A DNA stretch of 64,000 nucleotides, from assembly GCA_965219455.1 (NCBI GenBank), contig OZ244744.1, positions 160,001-224,000 on the forward strand, in the 5' to 3' direction. The stretch's first letter is position 1. Every line of letters begins with the position of its first letter. Positions 56,236-61,932 of the stretch are shown piece after piece. The notes beneath the pieces are model-generated. The model made no database searches. It was not told where the DNA came from and saw nothing but the letters and a program-made list of their open reading frames with translations. Origin of the DNA: Candidatus Latescibacterota bacterium. GTDB taxonomy: Bacteria > Latescibacterota > UBA2968 > GCA-2709665. A program made the position numbers and the translations under genes.

Positions 56236-56870
56236 AGCGACCCTTCCATTGAAATTCAACGACCGTCCGCAAAACGGACGGCCTGGCGCCCGATCCCGCT
56301 ATTGATTACACGATAACGTGCGCTTGTCGCGATCCTGGCGCCGTCTTGCCCTCATATTTCAGCACAGGCTGGCGCCCGCAAATGCGATATATATTGTCAA
56401 TATAGGCTGAATGGAAAGACGCTGCAAGCGGAAATGGATCGACCGGAATGAGGTCTTCGTTGCATGCGCTGCCCACGTTTGCACCAAGGCATTTCAGCTT
56501 ATTTCGGCGCGTCCCGGCAGTCCGACAAACCGGATTGACCGGGCACTTTCCCACCCGCAAAGCCCTTGCTGCCAGGGCCTGTAAACATCCGGGCGCCAGG
56601 TGATTCCGGCCAATTGCGCATGGATGTCCGTCTTTCGTGGCTTCCGGGCATACAGCCGCTGGCATACGCCTTGCCGCGCAGCCCGGCGGAGTTCCGGAAG
56701 GGTAAAATCGCCCTTGATATGGCGGTAGTTTTCGGTTATTGTTAAGCGATTCGACGCAATTTGCGTCGAATCGGGGAGGCCCGGGCCTGAAACCCCGGCG
56801 ACGTCACGGCATCTAACGCATAAATTACATTGCACTTATTCCCGCGCAGTCCAGCGAAGAGATTTTACCC

Positions 56871-57407
56871 ATGAAATTGAATCGCGTATTGTTTATTATA
56901 TTCTTTGCGATCGCCCTCGGCGACGTTTCCACACATGCCGCCACCGCACCCGACTTCAACCTCCGGAACCTGCAGGGCGAACGGGTCAACCTCAAGACCC
57001 TGCTGGCAAAGGGACCGGTGCTTCTGGATTTCTGGGCGACTTATTGCAAGCCCTGCGTCAAGGCGATGCCCAAGCTTCAGAAGATTCACGAGAAATACGG
57101 CAAATCCGGACTCACGGTTCTTGGCGTCAACGTGGACGGGCCGCGCGGACAGAACCGAGTGAAACCCTTTCTCCGGGCGCGAAAGGTCAGCTTCCCAATC
57201 GCACTCGACTCCGACAGCGCCGTGATGCGGCGGATGCAGGTCAATGTCCTGCCAACCACGCTGTTGATCACGCAGAATGGCAAGATCGCGCTCAGGCAGG
57301 TCGGATACAATTCGAAACATGCCGATGCGTTGTTGGCCGCAGTAGAGTCGCTCTTTTCCAAGCCCGGAGACGACGAGGCAAACGCCGATGCGCGTGCCGA
57401 TAAATAG
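56871..57407 (+). CDS. Exported TlpA/ResA-like thiol-disulfide oxidoreductase
   Basis: Signal peptide; APDFNL, LLDFWATYCKPC, cis-Pro motif VLPTT. Confidence 0.92.
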   Translation: MKLNRVLFIIFFAIALGDVSTHAATAPDFNLRNLQGERVNLKTLLAKGPVLLDFWATYCKPCVKAMPKLQKIHEKYGKSGLTVLGVNVDGPRGQNRVKPFLRARKVSFPIALDSDSAVMRRMQVNVLPTTLLITQNGKIALRQVGYNSKHADALLAAVESLFSKPGDDEANADARADK

Positions 57408-58971
57408 ACTGGCGACGCTTTTTCTTGTCCTTATGGCCGACCGCGCCGCAGCACAGGTTACAGCTTCCAGCCTGACCGAACTGCAGCGCGGGCGGGTACC
57501 GGGCGTGGATTCGCTTGCGGTTTCCAACCTTTACGAACAGTTTGATGTCGACTACATCCAGCACGGGATCCAGGCCGGTTTCCGGGCCGAAATTTTCAAC
57601 ACATGGCGCAACATCGGTCCCGGCTCGCGCCTGTCGCAGGTTGAATACCGAGTGGTTCATATTGCCCAGAAGCACCTGCGATGGACAAACGGACCCACCG
57701 AACTGGTTACGGGCAACTACTACGCCATCCTGGGCCGGGGAATCACGCTCAGGGCCTTCGATCTCCCGGGGGTAATACTGGAGAGCGCTCAATACCGGCG
57801 TCGCTATTCGCCATCGCGAGACCTGGAGGGCGGCATGGCCACCTGGGCGGGGCCTCGGGCCGAGGCAAAAGCCCTGATCGGGCGACCCGTATTGAGTGAC
57901 GTTCCGCCTGCGGTGCGGGTGGGTAATCCGCTTCGTGATGTACCGCGACGTGACAACTGGCTTCTCGGAGGCGAAGTCTCGCTGCGGCCTCACAAGCAGA
58001 TCAAGACCGGTGTCACGGCCGTCAGCCATCACGCCTCAAGGTTTGACTCCACCCGAACGTGGTCGGGTTTTCTGGAACTCGACATCACCCCCGCAATTGA
58101 ATCATCCGGCCTTACGGACGCGTTTGCAACCATCTACGCAGAATACGCCGGACTGAATGACGTGCACGTGGAGGGAAGCGCACTCTATATTTCGGCCAAC
58201 GCCGGCATTTCCAACCTGGGCTTGAGCCTGGAATACAAGGATTACGAGAAATTCGCCTTCAATTTCAACGATCCACCATCCCTGGTTCGCGAACACTCGG
58301 CCGTCCTGCTCAACCGGGCCACCCATGCCCTGATTGCCGATACGGAAAAAGGCTATCAGGCGGAAGCCACCTATTCTATTTTCGACCTGGGCACGCTGAC
58401 GGTAAATATAAGCAAGGGTGAGAACGAACTGGCGCCCGGCTTCGCAACCACCTTCAATGAGCGGTATTTCGGCGTGGACATCGACCCCCCGTCTGGTGAT
58501 CGGGGCCGCGCGATATCTACCAACCTGTTCGTCGATTGGGGAAAAAACGAACTGAAGGGGATCCGGAAGCACAGAATCGCTGGCGCGGGAATCGAATCCA
58601 TCACACCCGGCGGATCTGTCGCGGGCTTGGATTTTCAGGTCCGTCGCGCGGCCAGGCTGCCTCGAAATGAGCCGGCGTTTTGGGACGTCTTTACCCAGTT
58701 TTCCTACCAGCATCTCTCGGGCGTGGGTACCGCCCTCGTTCTTGATCGCACCAACGATCCGTTCGAGGTTGACGATGGCGCAACGCCGGACCGGATCGAG
58801 ACCGGGACGCGCACCTGGCTGGCGGTCAATCTCAACGTCGGCTTTCTCGAACGATACGAGGCCCTTATATTCGCCGGCCGCAGGCGAGGCGGCGCCGCGT
58901 GTACTTCGGGTACATGTTATCAGGTGCTGCCATTCAACGGCCTTGAAATGCGTTTCAAAACCCATTTCTGA
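57388..58971 (+). CDS. Probable outer-membrane beta-barrel protein (DUF6029-like)
   Basis: Signal peptide (AAA-Q); GNYYAILGRGITLR, EYKDY, alternating beta-strand pattern, C-terminal RRGGAACTSGTCYQVLPFNG..KTHF ending in Phe. Confidence 0.72.
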   Translation: MRVPINRLATLFLVLMADRAAAQVTASSLTELQRGRVPGVDSLAVSNLYEQFDVDYIQHGIQAGFRAEIFNTWRNIGPGSRLSQVEYRVVHIAQKHLRWTNGPTELVTGNYYAILGRGITLRAFDLPGVILESAQYRRRYSPSRDLEGGMATWAGPRAEAKALIGRPVLSDVPPAVRVGNPLRDVPRRDNWLLGGEVSLRPHKQIKTGVTAVSHHASRFDSTRTWSGFLELDITPAIESSGLTDAFATIYAEYAGLNDVHVEGSALYISANAGISNLGLSLEYKDYEKFAFNFNDPPSLVREHSAVLLNRATHALIADTEKGYQAEATYSIFDLGTLTVNISKGENELAPGFATTFNERYFGVDIDPPSGDRGRAISTNLFVDWGKNELKGIRKHRIAGAGIESITPGGSVAGLDFQVRRAARLPRNEPAFWDVFTQFSYQHLSGVGTALVLDRTNDPFEVDDGATPDRIETGTRTWLAVNLNVGFLERYEALIFAGRRRGGAACTSGTCYQVLPFNGLEMRFKTHF

Positions 58972-59005
58972 CGCAGACCACACACACTCTCAAGGGAGGA
59001 TTGCC

Positions 59006-59986
59006 ATGAGTCGAATCACTACGTGCGTCTTGTTCCTGCTGGTTCTGGGACTCTACCCCTTTGTACCCGCGCAAGCGCAGGGCGTCGATGACGCGGTACC
59101 GACGTTCTCGCTTACCGGGCTGGATGGGAAGACCTACGCCTCGGCGACCTACAAGGGCAGTGTCCTGGTCCTCTATTACCTGGGCCATAACTGACCCACG
59201 TGCCGGGCGGCGGGTCCGTCCATAGAACAGCAGATCTGGAAGGCGTTCCAGGATGACGGCTTAGCGGTCCTGGGACTTGACATCTACAATGGCAGTCAGG
59301 CTCAACTTAAGGATTTTCAGGCAGTGTCCACGATCACGTTTCCCCTCCTGCTGCAGGCAAGCAATATAAGGGGATCTCACGGGACCCACACTTTGCTGGT
59401 CGCGGACCGGGAAGGAATCGTCCGTCACATCGGGCGTGGCGCTTCCGGTCTCAGCGCCGCGGCCGAGAGCATCCGACAATTACTGACCGTTCCGCCGCCG
59501 GCGATCAATCTTCCGAATACGTCACTCGAATTTGGCGAGGACGTTCCAGCCGGAGAATCCAGAACGCTCACCCTGGTCGTGCAGAATACAGGGGGGGAAG
59601 CCCTCAATATCAGCGACATTCAATCCGATCTCGAGGGGATCTCCATTGATACAACCGAGCTGTTGGTTGCGGCGGGAGACAGCGCGAAGGTCGAAATCAC
59701 CTTCACCCCCACAGAAACCGGCCCCTTCTCCGGCACCCTGACCATTCTGAGCAACGACCCGGAAAACGGCAGCATTATCGTCTCGTTCTCCGGAACGGCC
59801 ATCGTCATCTACGGCGACGCCCGGGCGGATTTCGACGGTGACGGGGAAATCGGATTCAGTGACTTCGTCGCCTTTGCCCAGGCCTTCAACACCGACAACG
59901 CTACCTTCGACCTGAGCGGGAACGGTCTGGTCGACTTCCCGGACTTTCTGGAATTCGCGAAAAACTTCGGCAAACGCCTGCCCTGA
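59006..59986 (+). CDS. Predicted selenoprotein: exported redoxin (UxxC) + Ig-like + dockerin/EF-hand-like domain, 326 aa, Sec63
   Basis: GGGAGG RBS and ATG 59006; in-frame TGA at 59192-59194 in LYYLGHN-U-PTC; the frame stays open into the 59324..59986 ORF and completes the thioredoxin fold. Confidence 0.85.
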
Positions 59987-60004
59987 GTTCCGCCGGACTA
60001 TTCA

Positions 60005-60040
60005 CGAAAAAGCCACGCCGAATAAAGCGTGTCTTTTTCG
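60005..60040 (+). terminator. Probable terminator after the redoxin operon
   Basis: CGAAAAAGCCACGC...GCGTGTCTTTTTCG imperfect hairpin with T tract. Confidence 0.55.
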
Positions 60041-60048
60041 TTCCCTAG

Positions 60049-61932
60049 CCCTAAAATAAGCGAGTATCGTGTGCGCCACAGTGATTTGTGTTTGTGTTGA
60101 GGCGTTGGTGTCGATTTATATGGAATTGGCGTTTTGGATGGTTTTTAGGGCCGTGTTTGTCGTGGTCGCTATGGTAAATTGAGTATCCGAAGTGGCGTTG
60201 AGACGCGTGGTGGACACACCGGTCCGTTGAGGGGTGTGGGGATGGCGCCGCGTTTGTGTGTCATCGGTGGTGCTGCATTGGTGTTATCCAAATCCGGTGC
60301 GTTCAATGATACGCCAGGTGCTGAAGAGGCGATCGAGGGTGGGTTGATAGCCGATGAGCCGTAACGTGGTGGTGCGCGCGCGTTGGATGACGTGGCAGGG
60401 AATCAAGATAATGCTGTGGATGAAGCGCCGGAATTCCATGCAGACGTACTGCTGTCGATCACGGTGTCTGTGCATCATCATGGCAAACCAGGATTTGAGG
60501 TTCCAGGCCAGGGCGGCGATGACCATATAGGCCCAGTTGCTGACCAGGTCATACAGGGGCACGCGCAAGGCGTTGACGCCGTTTTTGAGTTGCTCGATGA
60601 CGTTCTCCTGATCGCAGCGTTGGTTGGCGCAGGCGACGATCTCTTGGGGGGTCACGTCCGTGCGTGTCGTGATATAGAAGAAATAACGGCATTCGTCGAA
60701 CAGGACAAGGTCGCCCTTCATTTTGCTGATGTTCTTGCGCAGGACCACGACGCGATACCCACGTTTACAGCGCGTGGGTTGGTAGTTGAACTCGGCCACG
60801 TGTTCGTGGTTCAGCACCAGGTTGGCGTAGGCCCGCTTGTGGACGATGCGCTGTTTCTCGTGGGGCTGATTGCGCTTCCGCTTCTGGTCGGTCACGGTGT
60901 GATAACGGGGTTTGCGTTGCAGGGGCTGCCATTGTGCCTCGTCGAGGGCCTCGGCACGGGAACGCATCGCCGCGTTGGCGTCCATCCCGAAGATGAAGTC
61001 GACGCTTTTGGCCCAGCGATCAAGATGTCGAGTCAAGAAAAAGTCGGTGTCGCCACGCACACAGATGCGCTTGGCGTGGGGCTGCACCAGCGCCAAGGCG
61101 TCGTCGATCCAGGGTGCCGCACCGGTGTGGCTGGGCACATTCCCCGGTCGGTTGACCAGGAAGAGCACTTCCTTCGTGTTGGAAAGTGAGATCACCAGCG
61201 GATGGTAGCCCCAGATGCCCTGGTAAGAGATGTCCATACCCCTCTTGCGCTTGCCATACGTGGGCACGTTTGTGCCGTCCACATCGATATAGGTGATGTC
61301 ACCAAGCAATTTGCGGCCACGCGATGCCCACAAGGAGGATCGCACCGCGTTGATGCACGCCATCAGTTCGACGATGTCCCGTTCCGAGAAGCGTCGGCAA
61401 AAGTCACCCGCCGTGGTCGGATCGGGAATCAACTTGGCGCCCAGGGCATTCATGTAGGCCCCGTCACTTCGCAAACGCTCGATATCCTCCAGGCGCGTGC
61501 CGCCGCATAACACGTTGTATGTGATGTTTAGTACGTGGTCCGACTCATGATAGGGCAGATGCACCTTCAACAAGGACAGTGACGCGTCGATGCGCTTGGG
61601 CAGACCCAGCTTGGTGACCAGGCGATGCACGGCGCCGATGCCTCCGTAACTCATCGCGTCGGTGTAGGCGCCTACCTCGTAGTGCACTTTGCCAGGACTG
61701 AACATGGGCCGGCGCTGGGCCTGCCAATGCCCCGCTCGACCGTGGCGGGCGGCCACTTTGCGTTTGCGACGAGCACGATTCCTGCGGCTGTCATCAACCG
61801 ATATTCTTTTCACCGGAAAGGTCTCCTGCGTTGGAGTGATGATTTCTAGCACAATCCATCTATCTCCAACAACGGTAGGCCTTTCCGGTCTCTTGGACCA
61901 GAAAAATTTCACTGGTCACGCTTGTTTAAGGC
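60049..61932 (-). mobile_element. IS1380-family insertion sequence (about 1884 bp)
   Basis: Imperfect TIRs CCCTAAAATAAGCG / CGCTTGTTTAAGGC, CTAG on both flanks (60045-60048, 61933-61936), single transposase gene. Confidence 0.85.
60284..61813 (-). CDS. IS1380-family DDE transposase
   Basis: IPDPTTAGDFCRRF, IDVDGT, GYHPL, RPGN, VRGD, RCDQENVIEQLK; GTG 61813 after AGGAGA preferred over 61912. Confidence 0.9.
   Translation of the reverse strand: MKRISVDDSRRNRARRKRKVAARHGRAGHWQAQRRPMFSPGKVHYEVGAYTDAMSYGGIGAVHRLVTKLGLPKRIDASLSLLKVHLPYHESDHVLNITYNVLCGGTRLEDIERLRSDGAYMNALGAKLIPDPTTAGDFCRRFSERDIVELMACINAVRSSLWASRGRKLLGDITYIDVDGTNVPTYGKRKRGMDISYQGIWGYHPLVISLSNTKEVLFLVNRPGNVPSHTGAAPWIDDALALVQPHAKRICVRGDTDFFLTRHLDRWAKSVDFIFGMDANAAMRSRAEALDEAQWQPLQRKPRYHTVTDQKRKRNQPHEKQRIVHKRAYANLVLNHEHVAEFNYQPTRCKRGYRVVVLRKNISKMKGDLVLFDECRYFFYITTRTDVTPQEIVACANQRCDQENVIEQLKNGVNALRVPLYDLVSNWAYMVIAALAWNLKSWFAMMMHRHRDRQQYVCMEFRRFIHSIILIPCHVIQRARTTTLRLIGYQPTLDRLFSTWRIIERTGFG

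Follow-up and report, generated by a model that had tools for sequence, protein, structure and literature searches.

A probable secreted selenoprotein of Latescibacterota joining a TlpA/ResA-like redoxin domain to an Ig-like domain and a dockerin

Redoxins with selenocysteine (Sec, U) at the first position of a UxxC motif are already known as such. Table 1 of PMC13188914 lists a peroxiredoxin-like thiol:disulfide oxidoreductase (PF00578, UxxC or UxxU), a redoxin family protein (PF08534) and a thiol:disulfide interchange protein (PF13098) with this motif as well as a DUF1573 protein with a UGC motif, and the same selenoprotein classes are listed in PMC9312934. Here we describe a gene at positions 59006-59986 of a 64,000-nt stretch of DNA from Candidatus Latescibacterota bacterium (assembly GCA_965219455.1, contig OZ244744.1, positions 160,001 to 224,000; this whole stretch is called the window in the following), which very probably encodes a selenoprotein. 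Its only internal TGA stands at the first position of a U-P-T-C motif in a thioredoxin-fold domain, and the reading frame continues through an immunoglobulin (Ig)-like domain into a C-terminal dockerin. An earlier reading of the same DNA, made from the letters and a list of open reading frames (ORFs) and called here the sequence-only reading, had assigned the protein to the UxxC thioredoxin/peroxiredoxin-like selenoproteins as a known class. The class is borne out by the families in Table 1 of PMC13188914, while 'peroxiredoxin-like' is the weaker label, as the protein is closer to the TlpA/ResA type. We consider one secreted selenoprotein of 326 residues, encoded by 59006-59986, to be with high probability the best explanation of the locus as a whole.

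A single internal TGA kept among homologues

The features of the gene are the following:

58994..58999, plus strand: Shine-Dalgarno sequence GGGAGG, 6 nt upstream of the ATG at 59006, read from the sequence
59006..59986, plus strand: predicted selenoprotein coding sequence, 326 codons and then a TGA stop; orthologues share the start Met
59192..59194, plus strand: predicted selenocysteine codon TGA, codon 63, first position of U-P-T-C
59201..59203, plus strand: Cys66 codon TGC, predicted resolving residue of the UxxC, invariant (column C40 of the 23-member profile alignment)
59205..59221, plus strand: putative bacterial selenocysteine insertion sequence (bSECIS) hairpin, with a 6-bp stem (59205-59210/59216-59221) and the 5-nt loop CGGGU (59211-59215), -7.8 kcal/mol
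59984..59986, plus strand: terminal TGA, an ordinary stop; homologues stop at the same place with TGA, TAG or TAA
60014..60041, plus strand: terminator-like hairpin and T run 3' of the gene

The ribosome-binding site, the start codon and the frame named by the sequence-only reading were all seen in the sequence, and the frame is interrupted once only, at codon 63, where the flanking residues read VLVLYYLGHN-U-PTC-RAAGPSIEQQIW. Under translation table 11 the frame breaks into two ORFs, one that ends at 59194 and one of 220 aa that starts with GTG and covers 59324-59986. An in-frame ATG further upstream, at 58667, was rejected as the start because it overlaps the preceding DUF6029 gene and because orthologues share Met 59006 together with its ribosome-binding site.

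The contigs of four public sequencing runs, aligned with 58800-60100, show TGA, and neither TGC nor TGT, with 0 differences at 59192-59194, and one of them, of 3.2 kb, spans 59031-60049 with 0 differences as well. As independent runs show the identical TGA, it is no assembly or sequencing error. Of all stops in the genome, a single contig of 5.84 Mb, TGA is the most frequent and ends 1,980 of 3,869 open frames of at least 300 codons; the five genes around the locus hold no in-frame TGA, and the selenoprotein gene itself ends in TGA. TGA is thus a normal stop both genome-wide and in the neighbouring genes, and UGA has therefore not been reassigned.

With residues 1-160 as query, six-frame translations of 40 relatives gave an orthologue in 14 of 14 genomes of the genus (71-85% identity, one TGA each) and dozens of distant copies at 33-50% identity, nearly all of them with one TGA. 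We extracted 63 homologues from 54 loci and observed TGA in 58 and Cys in five of them, always in the same column; no other residue, and thus no Trp, occurs there. On this alignment the recurrence of the TGA column is far beyond chance, since it is found in 58 of 63 homologues. The TGA homologues share the motif [GF][HYFW]x-U-x-x-C. The Cys homologues read IGYNCPVC, FGFRCPVC, LGYSCKYC, LGHNCAPC and LGYNCAPC, and a full-length Cys form in the public protein collection (P0015) reads FLGYNCPVC. The five Cys forms fall into four separate positions next to Sec forms in a maximum-likelihood tree built from the 63 redoxin domains, and well-supported branches require at least three Sec/Cys changes, whose direction is unassigned in this unrooted tree.

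Among 151 genomes of the phylum that were searched with a profile of 23 family members, 84 gave matches at E<=1e-18. By family they were found in 17 of 18 (f1), 29 of 30 (f2), 36 of 64 (f3) and 1 of 2 (f4) genomes, and in 0 of 36 genomes of ten other families. Counted by hand, about 138 match rows were obtained, and 133 of them hold an in-frame TGA: 131 exactly one, one row two, and one row a TGA and a TAG. One further row has a TAA and four have no stop. The same kind of search in 1.84 billion database representatives returned 968 proteins at E<=1e-10. Almost all of the top 150 span the whole profile, so that they must be forms without Sec. Nine fetched representatives that cover the motif column have CxxC, bar one with Glu first, and among the aligned Cys-type database relatives both Cys are invariant in 16 of 16. 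One of the database representatives, P0124 (169 aa), is related to the Cys form L042_2 and reads FGFSEPGC, seemingly with Glu at the Sec/Cys position; it may be a degenerate copy or the result of a sequencing or frameshift artefact.

The genome holds the machinery for Sec. A tRNA-Sec is detected by Rfam with 73.6 bits (cut-off 47) and is called SeC, anticodon tca, by ARAGORN. SelA (481 bits) and the SelB wing domain (75 bits) score above their curated cut-offs, and both lie upstream of the tRNA. selA, selB and the tRNA-Sec form one cluster at G000:C1:4374337-4377628 (plus strand; loci L001, L009 and L016), with the tRNA about 140 nt past the SelB wing domain. A selD gene stands apart at G000:C1:3407174-3408097 (minus strand; locus L017), with 360 bits to TIGR00476, again above the curated cut-off. 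Because this selD holds one in-frame TGA, the selenophosphate synthetase is here, by prediction, itself a selenoprotein.

We compared the ratio of non-synonymous to synonymous substitutions (dN/dS, Nei-Gojobori pairwise means over 15 genus orthologues) along the gene. It is 0.38 in the signal peptide, which is typical of signal peptides, 0.14 in codons 25-62 before the UGA, 0.19 in codons 64-160 after it, 0.20 in the Ig-like domain and 0.19 in the dockerin. Selection is not relaxed behind the UGA, and from the similar purifying selection on either side it follows that the downstream half is not dead. The synonymous rate dS alone is 0.29 in codons 64-74 versus 0.57-0.77 elsewhere. The single 326-aa Sec protein proposed by the sequence-only reading is thus supported by homologues, by the machinery, by selection and by the hairpin described below.

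The hairpin behind the UGA

With the U of UGA counted as 1, the hairpin at 59205-59221 pairs G14-G19 with C25-C30 and leaves C20 G21 G22 G23 U24 in the loop; the distance from the UGA is 10 nt to the stem and 16 nt to the loop. In the consensus bSECIS model of PMC13188914 the loop measures 3-9 nt and the stem 4-16 bp, one of the first two loop bases is a G, and the UGA and the loop are 16-37 nt apart. The hairpin of the window agrees with all four constraints of the model as given there (loop 5 nt, stem 6 bp, G at the second position, spacing 16 nt), and a hairpin fitting the model was found in 54 of 56 distinct Sec sequences. Hairpins of -5 kcal/mol or below occur in 80% of the Sec sequences versus 13.6% of 1,220 positions taken as controls within these genes, with median energies of -7.8 and -0.4 kcal/mol, respectively. 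Within the hairpin the wobble positions are frozen: Ala is GCG in 34 of 34, Gly is GGT in 42 of 44 and Pro is CCG in 40 of 45 cases. At conserved codons of the domain outside the hairpin, the most frequent third base accounts for no more than 0.31-0.72 of the cases, and GGT is seldom used for the remaining Gly. These frozen synonymous sites are the strongest argument for a SECIS.

Members of family f3 have other peptides in this region (AEAA, LSRAE), yet hairpins such as CGCGG-AGG-CCGCG and CUCUCG-CGUGC-CGAGAG are formed at the same distance. In the f3 loci L081, L082 and L087, which carry the latter hairpin, the loop begins 15 nt past the UGA, one short of the 16-37 nt of the model, so that a search held strictly to the model would pass them over. 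Mean hairpin energy is -8.97 kcal/mol for the Sec forms (n = 40) versus -5.04 for the Cys forms (n = 5). The SECIS of Escherichia coli fdhF has a GGUC loop with G23/U24 and a minimal element 11 nt past the UGA. The family described here likewise places G22 G23 U24 (C25) in or at the apical loop, with the stem starting at +14 to +17; it differs by a shorter stem, by the lack of an evident bulged U and by a register that varies from clade to clade.

The structural statistics for the RNA of this one gene are modest, and a number of observations weigh against this hairpin as a SECIS. Two of the five Cys forms retain a fair hairpin. The fold of 59186-59270 is no stabler than shuffles (z 0.16), in a GC-rich coding region where this test is uninformative. 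Synonymous recoding yields a fold as stable as the window hairpin in 10% of cases when usage-weighted and in 6% when uniform, and the recoding test gives values <=0.05 for 13 of 40 distinct Sec sequences when usage-weighted and for 23 of 40 when uniform. RNAalifold reported no consensus structure for a 46-sequence alignment, which we attribute to the shift of the hairpin register between clades. Covariation in fixed columns is weak (0.200 versus 0.156 in shuffles, of which 6 in 500 score as high); in a fixed register only the inner four pairs are well kept while the outer four mostly fail to form, and Gly-Pro codons (GGN CCN) are self-complementary on their own. An Rfam scan of the window had no SECIS family match at the hairpin; Rfam-type models are not expected to detect such short coding hairpins. 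As for expression, contigs of two metatranscriptomic libraries cross the TGA (X17 record 2, 59138-59317, 0 differences; X18 record 7, 59084-59281), and they are a weak hint of transcription that is silent on decoding and could stem from DNA contamination.

Domains, neighbouring genes and place of the predicted protein

The frame read through the TGA has the architecture that the sequence-only reading had described (signal peptide, Ig-like and dockerin-like parts), as seen from Pfam and NCBIfam matches and from a profile of the tail:

59006..59077, plus strand: general-secretory (Sec-type) signal peptide, residues 1-24, MSRITTCVLFLLVLGLYPFVPAQA/QG, predicted cleavage after AQA
59084..59443, plus strand: TlpA/ResA-like thioredoxin-fold (redoxin) domain, residues 27-146, by PF00578, PF08534 and the PDB profile
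59498..59794, plus strand: Ig-like domain of the choice-of-anchor D / DUF1573 / ASH type, residues 165-263
59816..59977, plus strand: dockerin-type module with two Ca-binding F-hand repeats, DFDGDGEIGFSDF and DLSGNGLVDFPDF, residues about 271-324

The signal peptide was assigned by eye (basic n-region, hydrophobic core, A-x-A) and is kept in orthologues. A reading of the protein as a lipoprotein anchored at Cys7 was rejected, since ITTC does not form a lipobox and the Cys varies, with Phe in L036. Two Pfam families cross the TGA, namely AhpC-TSA (PF00578, residues 27-118, E 2e-12, 47.5 bits with a gathering cut-off of 26) and Redoxin (PF08534, residues 27-146, 31.5 bits). We searched PDB with a redoxin profile of 23 family members and obtained 2ls5 (1.6e-14), 3kcm (2.7e-14) and 3hdc, in which the CxxC aligns with the UxxC, so that the TGA falls at the first, nucleophilic Cys position of the thioredoxin fold, as the sequence-only reading had stated and as the Sec/Cys column indicates too. 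ResA of Bacillus subtilis followed at 2e-10 (about 1e-10) and TlpA at 1e-2, while peroxiredoxins and glutathione peroxidases reached only about 1e-3. The Ig-like domain matches ASH (5e-12), the HYDIN/VesB Ig domain (4e-11) and DUF1573 (4e-11) in Pfam and NF012200 choice_anch_D in NCBIfam (54 bits, cut-off 45). In the last 55 residues Pfam gives EF-hand-like matches, and a profile of 21 tails finds the cellulosomal dockerin 2y3n_B at 2.5e-10 across both repeats as well as the scaffoldin dockerins 4wi0_B and 4u3s_B. The D/F pattern of the tail is invariant, and the relative L083 reaches 29.3 bits with NCBIfam dockerin_GC. By homology, the C-terminal 55 residues are a dockerin.

Two genes precede the selenoprotein gene on the same strand:

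56714-56742: promoter-like site upstream of the TlpA-like gene
56871..57407, plus strand: gene for a TlpA-like thiol-disulfide oxidoreductase, a Cys form (WATYCKPC) with signal peptide; AhpC-TSA 8e-25, Redoxin 2e-21
57388..58971, plus strand: DUF6029 gene, 527 aa, putative outer-membrane beta-barrel; PF19494 1.9e-12

The first is the neighbouring TlpA with CKPC to which the sequence-only reading had compared the site. The DUF6029 gene shares 20 nt with it and is separated from the Sec gene by 34 nt, and the three genes form a putative operon with the Sec gene last. DUF6029 has been tied to Wzi-type 18-stranded outer-membrane barrels by HHpred (PMC9603273); a comparison of the DUF6029 protein with PDB sequences gave nothing significant. 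Wherever the genus loci have sufficient flanking sequence, the TlpA-like and DUF6029 genes adjoin the Sec gene; they do so as well in another four loci of f1 and in eight of f3 (30-38% identity), where order and strand are shuffled, but not in the f2 copies examined. As the linkage survives rearrangement, it suggests that the three genes share a function. When metagenomes were scanned with the Cys form P0092, matches to the type IX secretion system (T9SS) tail motif prevailed, and most of the 80 loci match only residues about 155-259. There was no DUF6029 in these 80 tail-dominated loci.

Directly 3' of the selenoprotein gene lies a DDE transposase (PF13701, 1.4e-38; window 60284-61912, minus strand). 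The contigs of other runs break or diverge at 60045-60049, where word depth rises from about 13 to 165-260, and this looks like a multi-copy insertion sequence (IS) whose insertion is not common to all strains. In 4 of 14 genus relatives (L025, L027, L028 and L030 in genomes G004, G002, G008 and G010) a second, tandem Sec paralogue with the motif LGHNU[ND]LC and 58-61% identity lies about 0.6 kb downstream of the orthologue, where the genome of the window has the IS instead. Elsewhere in the window, at 41211-43002 and 45453-50813 (both minus strand), we observed group II intron RNA domains (RF02001 with 139 bits, RF01998, RF00029); a complete rRNA operon (5S, 23S, tRNA-Ala, tRNA-Ile, 16S) lies about 2.5 kb away.

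Members of the family share the signal peptide and the Sec redoxin, which are followed by none to at least five Ig-like repeats in open frames of up to about 1,700 codons. The C-terminal end is a dockerin in f1, in f2 and in some f3 and f4 members. Three of five f3 members scanned end instead in a T9SS sorting domain of type A (TIGR04183, 31-43 bits with a cut-off of 23); the remaining two are L083, with the dockerin_GC match, and L079, with an inserted beta-lactamase-like serine hydrolase. In L079 (2463-4379, plus strand, genome G083) the Sec redoxin is fused to a hydrolase of the D-aminopeptidase/AmpH type (3e-37), and by eye the C-terminus ends in a T9SS-tail-like NYPNPFN, with TIGR04183 not in the best 25 of 56 families. 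All five Cys relatives tested carry TIGR04183 (27-50 bits), and it is absent from the window protein in NCBIfam. T9SS type A sorting domains mark cargo that is exported across the outer membrane. To judge from these tails, the redoxin module is typically exported cargo.

In the genome we found SprA (495 bits, cut-off 200), 22 T9SS tails, 32 Dockerin_1 matches and seven cohesin matches over the Pfam cut-off, and at least five frames join a cohesin to a T9SS sorting domain. One protein of 266 aa consists of signal peptide, cohesin and sorting domain only (G000:C1:5268601-5269398; L097 1348-2148). Small cohesin-T9SS paralogues of it stand at C1:703519, 709001, 3775246, 5322676 and 5660464, and this small-protein family is present in 31 of 31 relatives searched. 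Such proteins could be surface anchors for dockerin proteins. Judged by these sequence features, surface display, by dockerin-cohesin tethering in this lineage and by direct T9SS anchoring in f3, is somewhat favoured over other locations.

The mechanism that we propose is the following. During translation the UGA at codon 63 would be decoded as Sec, with the hairpin at 59205-59221 acting as a bacterial SECIS that recruits SelB and Sec-tRNA(Sec), the latter presumably made by SelA and SelD from the genome's own tRNA-Sec. The mature protein would then consist of a TlpA/ResA-like domain with the redox centre U63-P-T-C66, one Ig-like spacer and the C-terminal dockerin. By analogy to ResA and TlpA, the U63 selenolate may be an exposed nucleophile that attacks an oxidised sulfur or oxygen electrophile of a substrate, such as a disulfide; C66 would resolve the mixed selenenyl-sulfide, and a partner would re-reduce the Se-S bond. 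The protein would work outside the cytoplasm, most likely on the cell surface, where the dockerin could bind one of the cohesin proteins of the genome, several of which have T9SS sorting domains. Candidates for the electron supply and for outer-membrane passage or anchoring are, as a speculation, the TlpA-like protein and the DUF6029 barrel. A relay of thiols and selenols across the envelope, composed of a Sec redoxin fixed outside the outer membrane (by dockerin-cohesin contact or by the T9SS), the TlpA-like protein and DUF6029, can be put forward tentatively. If this is true, the gene would be the founding member of a family of surface-displayed selenoenzymes, and the extracellular substrates of the relay may be, for example, disulfide cross-links in polymers before their degradation, external oxidants, or sulfur and selenium species.

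Some results do not agree with a plain ResA-like mechanism. The score against the ResA subfamily model NF002854 is 33.8 bits with a cut-off of 170, and by its profile matches the protein is a ResA relative and no ResA orthologue. No conserved Pro aligns with the 'VP' of 3kcm (the cis-proline site) in the sequence profile, where the sole invariant Pro is that in FPLL. To our knowledge, no reductant is known for a surface enzyme.

The alternative that survives best concerns the place of action. The protein may be a periplasmic selenoprotein redoxin in which the dockerin-like tail and the Ig domain mediate protein contacts within the periplasm, the DUF6029 barrel and the TlpA-like neighbour being possible partners; we regard this as possible but rather doubtful. 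Several observations speak for it and weigh against surface display: the window protein has only the Sec-type signal peptide and no recognised outer-membrane export signal, Pfam Dockerin_1 is silent on the tail (E<=0.1, and also in the genome-wide scan), and dockerin_GC gives 25.3 bits with a cut-off of 29. Against surface display stands also the PorU-like frame of the genome, which stays under the NCBIfam cut-off. Relatives of TlpA and ResA are moreover periplasmic or membrane-anchored, and a periplasmic reductant, the TlpA-like protein, is encoded next door. On the other side stand the sorting domains of the f3 members and of the Cys relatives, the homology of the tail to cellulosomal dockerins over both repeats, and a genome that has SprA and pairs cohesins with T9SS sorting domains.

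A second alternative concerns the chemistry. That the selenoprotein is an extracellular peroxidase of the peroxiredoxin or glutathione peroxidase type and no thiol-disulfide oxidoreductase appears unlikely to us. AhpC/TSA is its best Pfam match, weak NCBIfam matches to PrxQ, thiol peroxidase and glutathione peroxidase are obtained, Sec is a very good peroxide reductant, and no cis-proline is evident at the expected site, which would resemble peroxiredoxins and glutathione peroxidases. However, peroxiredoxins carry Thr or Ser three residues before the peroxidatic residue as well as a conserved Arg, and the family described here has an invariant Gly at -3 and lacks an invariant Arg in its Sec forms. 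Selenocysteine-containing peroxiredoxins and glutathione peroxidase-like families are indeed listed in Table 1 of PMC13188914. Nevertheless, the UxxC spacing is of the oxidoreductase type, the TlpA/ResA-like structures were found at 1e-14 to 1e-10 compared to about 1e-3 for the peroxidases, and AhpC-TSA scores the ordinary TlpA-like neighbour even higher than the selenoprotein, all of which favours a thiol-disulfide oxidoreductase.

The remaining alternatives deny Sec itself. A read-through of the UGA as another residue (near-cognate Trp, Cys or Arg, or a lineage-specific reassignment) is highly improbable: nothing specific speaks for it, although the hairpin could in principle stimulate generic read-through, whereas a complete selA-selB-selC cluster and selD are present, Cys as the classical partner of Sec is the sole alternative in the extracted homologues, the hairpin agrees with the SelB-type model in its loop G/U and its fixed distance, and TGA ends roughly every second long frame and this gene as well. 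A true stop, be it in a broken gene or between two genes (a 62-residue secreted peptide and an Ig-dockerin protein from GTG 59324), is the least probable reading of all, since, even though table 11 yields exactly these two ORFs, the public collection holds the 220-aa product and many similar ones, and TGA is the commonest stop, such a stop would cut the redoxin domain through its active site, the starts of the annotated fragments vary among relatives (195-241 aa) as arbitrary calls would, the column is kept in 58 of the 63 extracted homologues, down to about 33% identity, with Cys as its only replacement there, dN/dS is similarly low on either side, and a nonsense mutation would not last across a class-level clade.

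Public records and relation to known systems

The sequence-only reading had expected that standard annotation would split the gene, and this is what we observed. The whole selenoprotein is not in the public protein collection, which holds for this gene only the 220-aa GTG-started fragment P0005, along with dozens of fragments of 195-241 aa named choice-of-anchor D or DUF1573 domain-containing proteins. None of the NCBIfam selenoprotein models reaches its cut-off on the window protein. In the full-text literature on selenocysteine and dockerin, judged by title and abstract, there was no dockerin-bearing selenoprotein; literature on Latescibacteria with dockerin or cohesin consisted of cellulosome papers only, and under the older spelling Latescibacteria or 'Latescibacter' the full-text literature and PMC13188914 gave nothing relevant on selenoproteins of the phylum. 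The family may already be present in some existing selenoprotein list. Three things appear to be new in comparison with this literature: a Latescibacterota family in which nearly every copy found has Sec (133 of about 138), a Sec redoxin continued by Ig-like repeats and a dockerin or, in a sister family, by a T9SS sorting domain, and the conserved linkage to TlpA-like and DUF6029 genes.

A family model flagged for Sec would repair the fragment records and add the family to the selenoproteome of the phylum. The near-exclusive use of Sec in Latescibacterota, with Cys forms common elsewhere, points to strong selection for the selenolate. The exchange of dockerin and T9SS tails on one catalytic module, together with fixed neighbours, offers the testable hypothesis of an extracytoplasmic and perhaps extracellular selenium redox chemistry, and the neighbour linkage suggests a role for the uncharacterised DUF6029 barrel. 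Should the proposed relay hold true, this would be the first dockerin-borne selenoprotein, with selenium used outside the cell envelope. The gene may also serve as a clean positive control for the discovery of selenoproteins from raw sequence.

Among the known selenoproteins, the PF00578 and PF08534 families of PMC13188914 share with the window protein the Pfam domains, a UxxC with Sec first and the prediction from Sec/Cys pairs. From these families as described there, the present one differs by its Ig-like repeats, its dockerin or T9SS domain and its occurrence in Latescibacterota, none of which is mentioned in that source. With the thiol-disulfide isomerase-like selenoprotein (cd02966, UxxC) and the ResA-like NF041054 it has in common a TlpA/ResA-like fold, an extracytoplasmic place and Sec in the redox motif. 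In contrast to these families as they are listed, it carries extra domains; NF041054 gave only 28 and 20 bits with a cut-off of 300, in f3 members only, and the WAxxUGC of that family is replaced here by [GF][HYFW]x-U-x-x-C without a preceding Trp. The OS_HP2/DUF1573 selenoprotein (PF07610, NF041425) has an Ig-like domain of the same DUF1573 kind (23.3 bits, residues 171-264), but its UGC lies within DUF1573, whereas the Ig domain here is free of Sec and the cut-off of NF041425 (100 bits) is far off.

Compared to the Cys enzymes ResA, TlpA and CcmG (PDB 1st9, 1jfu), the predicted protein is likewise secreted and has its redox motif at the place of their CxxC, but Sec takes the position of the nucleophilic Cys, there is neither a WC motif nor an evident cis-Pro, and an Ig-like domain and a dockerin are added. 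A Sec form that combines a thioredoxin domain with the T9SS was not found in the literature on selenocysteine with dockerin or Latescibacteria. HBP35 of Porphyromonas gingivalis is a T9SS-secreted thioredoxin-fold Cys protein, with CxxC, a sorting domain and surface display. The Cys relatives of the present family resemble such Bacteroidota proteins in that they too join a thioredoxin-type domain to a T9SS sorting domain, while the family of the window differs from these Cys proteins in its predicted use of Sec.

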